The notes under the pieces were generated by a model that ran no database searches, had not been told where the DNA came from, and saw only the letters and a list, made by a program, of their open reading frames with translations. Positions 19,601 to 22,600 of a stretch of DNA of 64,000 nt are shown here, in pieces (positions within the stretch are counted from its first letter, which is position 1; each line of letters opens with the position of its first letter). Both the position numbers and the translations under genes were made by a program. The stretch comes from Saccostrea cucullata (Eukaryota). The stretch covers positions 1 to 64,000 of the forward strand of contig NW_026935665.1 in the NCBI RefSeq assembly GCF_032062105.1, written 5' to 3'.

Positions 19601-22600
19601 GCCATGGCTGATCCTTTCTAATATTCTTTAAAAATTCACCAATGCCATGGTATACACGATAATTTTGTCTTTATAGTGTATAATGAATAATAAGATATTT
19701 TGTCTTTGTTATACAGAAAGGACAAAGAGGGTTTTTGTGTTTTGTAGTACAGACTGGATAAGGTAGCAGAAGCTGGACTGAAGATCTGGATAACAGAGCT
19801 AACGATTCTAGAATCCGACAGTACCAAAAAGGCAGCGGCTTTGGAGGAGCTTCTAACTCTGTATTTTAGTCACCCTGCGGTAGAGGGCGTTCTGTTGTGG
19901 GGGTTCTGGGACGGAGCAATATATGATCCCAATGTGTCACTGTTTACAGGATCTTCTATAGCAGTGAGTATCCAATGTGTCACTGTTTACGGGATCTTCC
20001 ATAGCAGTGAGTATCCAATGTGTCACTGTTTACGGGATCTTCCATAGCAGTGAGTATCCAATGTGTCACTGTTTACGGGATCTTCCATAGCAGTGAGTAT
20101 CCAATGTGTCACTGTTTACGGGATCTTCCATAGCAGTGAGTATCCAATGTGTCACTGTTTACGGGGTCTTCCATAGCAGTGAGTATCCAATGTGTCACTG
20201 TTTACGGGGTCTTCCATAGCAGTGAGTATCCAATGTGTCACTGTTTTCGGGGTCTTCCATAGCAGTGAGTATCCAATGTGTCACTGTTTACGGGATCTTC
20301 CATAGCAGTGAGTATCTATTGTGTCACTATTTACGGGGTCTTCTATAGCAGTGAGTATCCAATGTGTCACTGTTTACGGGATCTTCTGTAGCAGTGAGTA
20401 CCAATGTGTCACTGTTTACGGGATCTTCTATAGCAGTGATTATTTCATCATGAATCAACTTTGGATGGTAATTTGTGACTGATTATCGGTTAACTATCAA
20501 GAAAATGCCCAACTGTTTAAAGTATCCTCTATCCTCTATTAAGTAAGTTTAACAATACATTACAGCATTAACAGTTAATATTTTCAGGAACTTTCGTATT
20601 ATTTTGGAAATTCTGGTGCGGCTGTAAACATCCTTATAACCAGAATGCTACAAAACTAATGCTACAAAACTACAAAGGTTCATTCTCTATAAGGCCATTT
20701 TCCGGCCTACGATAAAATCACTTTAAAATGTGATTTTATATAACTATAATCATTCCAGTTCATGATTTTGATGTTTGTTTTTCAACATCAAACATCTAAG
20801 TCACGTGATTTAGAGATAAAAAATGGCTGTAAGTAAAAAAAAATTGAGGGTAGGTCTATTTAAATCAAGTTTCTATGCATGTTTCTGAATGTAAATTATC
20901 AAAAATTGTTTCTTTGTGTCGGAAATACATAAGACTTAAGTAATAAATTCGAGGATTTTTGAAATTTAAGGTTCAAGATATTTTTTATGACAAGAATTCC
21001 GATGCATCCACATTTTGCATATTTTGAACGCAAATCTTTACGAAATTCACACGGTATGGTGCTGAAAAAAGTTTGATTGGCAATTTATTGAAAAGTTTTA
21101 AATCATATATAATTATATTGTAATTGTATATCATATCTATAGATGTGGTACTTATCTTACGCATAAAATAATCATGTTAGAAATGAGGTTTCTAAACTCA
21201 TAAGTTTCTATTGAACTCTAAAAGTTACGTATCAAATGTTGAATGTACTTAATGGATTTTGATTGTGGTTAAATAAAAAATTAAGAAAAGAAATTCAACA
21301 ATTGCAAAAAATAAAGAATTAATAGCTTAATAATATCAATGCAAGTACATGTTGACTATCCATATACGTATAAATAGTCAATACACATAACTCAGAGCGG
21401 TTGCATTAAAATATCCATCTCTAAGTAAAATGAAATAGCGTCGTAAAATAGCTTTGCTTTTATTTTATTACTCTTGTTGCACGATACATACAATTAAAAA
21501 TGCCATCTAAACTTTATGTATTTACATGTATAAAAGTTGACCCCCTCCCCCCCCCCCCGTGTCTAACAGCACAACATAAAATGGAGTAGAATTTTAACAG
21601 TTCCTTCAAATATGCATATCAGATTCTAAAGTTTCCGTATATTAGTATACGGACTTAGGAGTTCTACAATATCCCAGATACAAAATGAACCCTAAGGGTT
21701 TGATGGGCCTTTCCAATCTTGAAACCTGTAGGTTAAATTCAGTCTCTTTCCCAGTGCAGCGTCAAAAACTTGTTTAACACGGATAGTGACAGTTCCCTGC
21801 CTAGGTCTTTAGCATTTAAGGTAAATGTCATGGGTCTCTTGGATATTATCTTTTTTTATATATAAAAAAGGTCCCGTCCTGCGTTGGGCGTTGGTTAGTA
21901 ATGCAACTATGCATAAACACTTGACCTTAAGTGGATGATCTCTTTATCTGGTTGAAAAGTCCTTAAATGGGGTAAAGCAACATTCAATTATCAATCACAT
22001 ATTGCATTTAGGAATCTCTCTCCTCTTTACCAGTTTATTTTTCTAAGACAGGACTACTGTTCTCGTAACTTATATCGATGCTATCAAAGGAGTGTGATGA
22101 AAAGACAGTCCTCTCAATATTAAGACCTAGTTTACAAAATATGGATCACGTGATACTCGTACGGAAGTGTCCATATAAAAATTATGTGTGTACCCATAGG
22201 AAAAAAAGTCTATAACACATATAATAAATGCATGTTAGCGCTTCAACCAAGATTGCTTTTATCATTCCTAGAACATATACAGTACTCATAAGGAAATACA
22301 AAGAATACATGCAGTACTCATAACGGAATTCAAAGAAGTAGCATATATAGATATACTAAACTATAATTATAAATATAAAAGATAACTCATATGAATTCAC
22401 TATAACCTATAAAAAGTTTTTATTTCTTAATTTTTATCAGACATTTCAAAGAAACGTCTCCACTTGTAATTTCATGACATCCAGTCTTCTCAGTCCTTTG
22501 ATTTTTAGATTTTTAAGTAAAAAGTTAACATTTTTTAAAGTAAATATGCATGACTGATATTAATCTTAGTAAATCAATAGAAAATTGTACTCTAACCAAA

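Follow-up and report, generated by a model that had tools for sequence, protein, structure and literature searches.

Saccostrea cucullata, an oyster, carries a xylanase-like gene in which the end of one coding exon, together with the 5' splice site that follows it, is repeated in tandem twelve times. This raises the question of which of the repeated donors is used in splicing, and whether the number of repeats sets the amount of intact enzyme that is made. The locus was analysed within a 64-kb stretch of genomic DNA, referred to below as the window, and with reference to sequencing runs from a relative and to published systems of a similar kind.

The host gene (LOC134243536 in RefSeq; 9549..23672, on the plus strand, as are all features of the gene and the array given below) is a 13-exon, xylanase-like glycoside hydrolase gene of family GH10 with an N-terminal CBM4_9 domain. 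When donor 1 of the array and the acceptor at 23339 are used, 13 exons joined at GT-AG junctions and extending from 9681 to 23672 give a protein identical to P0003, which is the S. cucullata RefSeq entry XP_062581777.1, and the exon carrying the repeat is indeed exon 11, as an earlier note on this DNA had numbered it. The translation of exon 11 itself is 100% identical to P0003. Pfam detects the GH10 domain (PF00331) at 164.5 bits against a curated cut-off of 22.1, as well as the CBM4_9 domain (PF02018), and the best match in the PDB is the beta-xylanase 7d88 (E = 1.8e-60, residues 127-509 aligned); judged by these similarities, the protein is presumed to have xylanase activity. An in-frame ATG at 9549, upstream of the RefSeq start at 9681, would add 44 codons (9549-9680) that open with a signal-peptide-like stretch, and with these the protein would be 572 aa long, the same as its S. 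echinata orthologue P0055.

Exon 11 (19748..19963, 216 nt, phase 0 at both ends in the donor-1 exon chain) encodes residues 377-448, among them the motif WITE, which we take to be the GH10 nucleophile motif, at the predicted catalytic nucleophile E393. It is followed by intron 11 (3,375 nt), exon 12 (23339..23546, 208 nt) and the coding part of exon 13 with the stop codon (23638..23672). The 80 residues after exon 11 are conserved in P0055, P0004 and P0005, and both the S. echinata orthologue and the paralogues are collinear with the host protein across the exon 11/12 junction.

Tandem Repeats Finder reports 19929-20443 as an array of period 43 with 12.0 copies, 95% matches and a score of 918. 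Listing of the units from the sequence showed that each consists of 35 exon-end bases followed by 8 intron-start bases, and that 11 units are 43 bp long and unit 11 is 42 bp. Unit 1 is the genuine boundary between exon 11 and intron 11, while units 2-12 lie inside the intron. Each unit ends in a donor, which reads GCA/GTGAGT (the slash marks the cut) in 11 of the 12 units and GCA/GTGATT in unit 12. The earlier note had given the same composition of the 43-bp unit and the same series of donors. It had also stated that every donor has the same exonic context, and here it was mistaken: the context is near-identical among units, with 8 of the 35 columns of the exon-like part variable and an A at column 20 that occurs in unit 1 only. 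Even with up to 10 mismatches allowed, no further copy of the 43-bp unit was found on either strand elsewhere in the 64-kb window. The array accounts for 11 of the 17 GTGAGT hexamers on the plus strand of the 64 kb. The unit length and position are those of a class of tandem repeats with 10-160-bp units, of which the first spans an authentic exon/intron boundary, and the intron contains ten further intact GCA/GTGAGT copies of the donor and a last, degenerate one.

Comparison of the units showed that units 2-5 and 9 are identical to each other, as are units 6-7, and that the most divergent units are 1, 10, 11 and 12. At columns 23 and 29 all four haplotypes are present among the units, which suggests that units exchanged sequence or that mutations recurred. 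A homogenised core, diverged edges and exchange between units are the pattern of minisatellite turnover. An excess of synonymous differences, as might be left by units that had passed through the coding position, was not significant (5 of the 8 variable columns, p = 0.06-0.08).

The array is real and has 12 units. That one unit was multiplied in the assembly consensus is extremely unlikely. Such an error might be suspected from the short contig (65,579 bp), which also holds a 6.1-kb duplication with 98% identity, and from a word search of sequencing runs, in which 20 of the 24 runs listed held a fraction of 0.17-0.26 of the 42 words of the stretch and half of the words were in none. However, the low share is what the exon words of a diverged relative would give and says nothing on the array, and the units carry structured, shared variants of the kind described above.

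Further evidence came from four runs from four studies, which were aligned over 17400-20014 (exons 6-11 and units 1-2). All four consist of assembled contigs from a single organism, a kind of data in which rare forms are lost, and their fixed exon differences of ~2-7% from the window indicate a relative and not the window's own lineage. Runs X1, X2 and X3 behave as RNA, with GT-AG joints, and X11 behaves as DNA, with the exon running into the intron. In X11, the summed depth was 221.8 at 19927, 1027 in 19864-19951 and 4933 in 19952-20014; these values are inflated by overlapping contigs and give no copy number. The rise at the array start, which is more than tenfold, nonetheless shows that the unit is present at many copies in an independent genome, and the piling up of the relative's genomic contigs on the unit makes an assembly artefact unlikely. 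Gaps in cover within the aligned stretch were given no weight, with the high-copy element at 19247-19601 crowding the contig pieces. A search of JGI metagenome contigs for the exact 26-base unit-junction pattern gave 0 matches and is uninformative.

The donors were compared by their predicted pairing with the 5' end of U1. The authentic donor 1, GCA/GTGAGTAT (19961..19971, cut between 19963 and 19964), which is the one used by P0003, forms a duplex of -7.6 kcal/mol. The ten further intact donors (20004..20400, cuts at 20006, 20049 and so on to 20393) are equal or nearly so, donors 1-10 having -7.6 kcal/mol and donor 11 -7.1 kcal/mol, and the other donors of the host gene, at -5.1 to -10.7 kcal/mol, bracket donors 1-11. 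The last donor, GCA/GTGATTAT (20433..20443), which runs into unique intron, has lost the +5G and reaches only -1.7 kcal/mol, so that it is predicted to be non-functional. Of the twelve tandem donors counted in the earlier note, eleven would therefore be real candidates, ten of them decoys.

The frame of P0003 is kept by donor 1 only. Every downstream donor leads to a premature stop, and with any donor other than donor 1 the 80 conserved residues following exon 11 would be lost. The earlier claim that the first donor alone gives intact protein is thus borne out, both by the computed products and by the identity with P0003. The claim that read-through hits a TAG at 20045..20047 holds in so far as the computed translation places this codon in the read-through frame, but it is reached by donors 3-12 only: donor 2 adds 43 nt, shifts the frame and stops inside exon 12, ~100 nt upstream of the last junction. 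The acceptor of intron 11 is also doubled, in a 22-bp two-copy repeat (23302-23343) whose acceptor-like AGs precede 23317 and 23339, and the frame is kept only via 23339. Rescue of the frame by the second acceptor at 23317, 22 nt upstream, fails for all 12 donors. Recursive splicing or the use of new exons within the array was also set aside, the acceptor-like AGs of units 1-3 all lying 2 nt before the next donor or overlapping it. A weak search, limited to longer proteins, for a protein with the read-through tail (residues 58-99) gave one candidate, and none was scored.

Spliced contigs of the host gene were found in all three of the RNA-like runs aligned, and exon 10 is joined to exon 11 in contigs of the relative (X2 record 17 and X3 record 22). 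Two 139-nt contigs, one from each of two studies (record 6 of X1 and record 18 of X2 among the contigs listed), align over 19855-19960, and their last 33 letters lie off the array (19961-20014). This is a weak hint that the relative's spliced contigs leave the genome at donor 1, presumably to join exon 12; the end of the alignment three bases before the donor could be explained by the last codon of the exon, which encodes Thr in orthologues and Ala in the window. In X2, contigs that stop where the exon stops account in full for the last bin: alone they would give 5661 depth-bases, and 4838 were observed. In X3, the last two bins retain 56 and 89 depth-bases, a residue that probably requires a low-depth piece (~2-3) across the junction of units 1 and 2, which may be pre-mRNA, DNA or a product of a downstream donor.

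These contigs also bear on the possibility that downstream donors often win and that the gene is partly crippled, this being tolerated through other GH10 genes of Saccostrea. Several GH10 paralogues are present in Saccostrea (P0003, P0004 and P0056), besides two truncated copies in the window, and in minigenes with two strong donors the use of the downstream one is reported to rise beyond ~30 nt of spacing and to be ~100% at 45 nt or more (PMC3413131). The open reading frame is nevertheless intact across 13 exons, a full-length orthologue (P0055) exists in S. echinata, and the gene is spliced in each of the RNA-like runs aligned. We therefore regard a crippled gene as very improbable.

Junction-spanning arrays of this kind are known from human and amphioxus genes, and the oyster array, which has the structural features of the class, is a bivalve example. 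In the human F7 gene, a 37-bp VNTR in intron 7 has a first monomer that spans the exon 7/intron 7 boundary (PMC1557585), and among 50 constructs only the most upstream functional donor was used (Borensztajn et al. 2006, PMC1557585). As in the oyster, further copies of the donor stand in the intron and could in principle function; in F7, according to that report, physiological splicing takes only the upstream one. The F7 unit, however, has 4 exon and 33 intron bases against 35 and 8 in the oyster, and F7 alleles have 5-9 units against 12. The suggestion that the oyster array offers a natural test of the choice among identical donors is thus anticipated by the F7 work as described there. The same source lists boundary arrays of 10-26 reiterated donors in human 6-16 (IFI6), CBS intron 13, LMNB2 and PDGFA, of which 6-16 and CBS show some use of the two following donors while LMNB2 and PDGFA are stated to use the authentic donor only (PMC1557585). 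For CBS, a title cited in PMC1557585 attributes the blocking of alternative splicing to a substitution in the second repeat, whereas the donor of oyster unit 2 is intact.

Another known group is formed by the amphioxus 'mirage' minisatellites of Adh3 and of the globin genes BflGb6 and BflGb9, for which normal splicing is reported (PMC3087553). These are, like the oyster array, invertebrate tandem duplications of exon/intron boundaries that are rich in exon sequence (PMC3087553); the BflGb9 mirage likewise duplicates the 3' boundary of an exon, and in mirages, as in the oyster, edge units escape homogenisation (PMC3087553). Length instability is described as a feature of mirages (PMC3087553), which the oyster array, from a bivalve, may or may not share. 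Among the papers listed in a literature search, there was no report of a tandem repeat at an exon-intron junction in an oyster or in Saccostrea, although the oyster case may already have been published.

We consider it likely that the array is a near-neutral passenger, that most transcripts are spliced at donor 1 and that units 2-12 are removed as part of the intron. The boundary may have been duplicated locally, after which the array would have grown by slippage and unequal exchange. Donor 1 would be committed first, co-transcriptionally and in the 5'-to-3' direction, as the transcript emerges, and exon definition would favour it, since it gives an exon 11 of 216 nt against 259-688 nt with the other donors. 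A few percent of the transcripts might use donors 2-3 instead; these would be cleared by nonsense-mediated decay, and their share would not scale with copy number. For S. cucullata, we infer the choice of donor 1, the decay of mis-spliced messages and the neutrality of the array. The annotated protein P0003, which is the donor-1 product, supports the use of donor 1. Among the counterpoints, the 43-nt spacing lies in the ~30-45 nt range in which minigenes switch to the downstream donor (PMC3413131), and the one donor that has been lost is the most downstream, as expected if downstream use is costly. The loss of donor 12, however, is a single mutation and is also expected of an edge unit. Since GT and +5G are intact in every one of units 2-11, there is no sign that silencing of the decoys was needed.

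A contribution of RNA structure to the choice of the first donor was also considered and rejected, since folding just as good was seen in 20% of 150 arrays made up of shuffled units. The array folds with z = -3.0 relative to plain shuffles, because the donor region can pair with a complementary 8-base arm in each unit; donor opening energies range from 1.4 to 11.5 kcal/mol depending on the span chosen for folding, and other donors are more open than donor 1. The 8-base arm may have aided the first slippage.

The main alternative to a neutral passenger is that oysters differ in copy number and that this number determines how much of the mRNA is productive. It could do so by competition from downstream donors or by length-dependent skipping of exon 11, which would be in frame and remove the predicted nucleophile, or of exon 12, which would shift the frame. 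The ten intact decoys, whose U1 pairing matches or nearly matches that of donor 1 and each of which leads to a premature stop, are in keeping with such an effect, as is the 43-nt spacing, which is in the range of the downstream shift reported for duplicated donors (PMC3413131). A precedent for a dial of this type is the 25-bp VNTR of human ABCA7 intron 18, which includes a donor and whose second donor retains one unit and shifts the frame (PMC5954066): between the extremes of length, skipping of exon 19 increases and expression drops by 33%, so that longer alleles have lower expression, as proposed for the oyster array (PMC5954066). A CBS title cited in PMC1557585 likewise names an association with lower activity. 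In ABCA7, however, length is described as acting through exon 19 skipping and total expression and not through donor choice, the form retaining one unit being independent of length (PMC5954066), and F7 with 5-9 units is reported to use the upstream donor only (PMC1557585). The relative's main contigs exit at donor 1, and the weak search for a read-through-tail protein did not find one. A dial of either type is accordingly held to be unlikely.

Comparison with the relative also gives a hint of how the array has evolved. The last codon of the exon-like part encodes Ala in all twelve units and Thr in orthologues, and X11, which has the unit at high depth, holds no more of the words of the stretch than the RNA-like runs do; together these hint that each lineage has homogenised the array with its own exon end.

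The surroundings of the array are rich in other repeats. Most of intron 11 is filled by a 2.4-kb element (20671..23059), likely a non-autonomous DNA transposon, whose 50-nt terminal inverted repeats are 86% complementary; it begins 230 nt downstream of the array and contains a 35-nt hairpin at 22704-22808. Intron 10 contains an element of ~355 bp with imperfect terminal inverted repeats (19247-19601). In the DNA-like run the contigs on this element reach a summed depth of 3-5 x 10^5, which indicates a very high-copy MITE-like family. The 6.1-kb duplication is in tandem (window positions 1-6133 and 6391-12496). It contains a 265-aa minus-strand GPCR-like ORF (1086-1883 and 7474-8271), presumably prostanoid-receptor-like, and GH10 exons 1-2, the first copy of which constitutes the truncated gene P0054 (123 aa); the duplication could be recent or could be an uncollapsed haplotype. 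A further GH10 paralogue, of which the window shows no more than exons 1-4, lies directly downstream of the host gene (23907-27561). At the DNA level its exon 4 is 96% identical to that of the intact gene and its exons 1-3 are 77-84% identical, an unevenness that suggests gene conversion or a chimera. A 193-bp satellite forms two oppositely oriented arrays (30746-32269, 7.9 copies; 39744-43971, 21.9 copies) that are separated by 7.5 kb.

The extra splice signals of the array are thus likely to be mostly ignored. The locus is a contrast case between two bodies of work, since endogenous arrays are reported to favour the upstream donor (PMC1557585) and minigenes to favour the downstream one from ~30-45 nt (PMC3413131); human arrays of 81 and 100 bp already break the minigene rule. 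The oyster array, with its period of 43 nt, lies on that boundary, and splicing at any of the downstream donors would ruin the message. On a more far-reaching view, the array would have persisted across a lineage split and been homogenised, separately in either lineage, together with the coding end of the exon, and its spacing would lie at the point of the downstream flip; the number of units would then serve as an inherited rheostat for a digestive xylanase of wild oysters, acting through donor competition itself, an effect that the study of ABCA7 did not observe. We hold this to be improbable. If it were true that copy number tunes output via donor competition, the array would amount to an expression switch that mutates fast and controls a digestive enzyme in a group of farmed animals.
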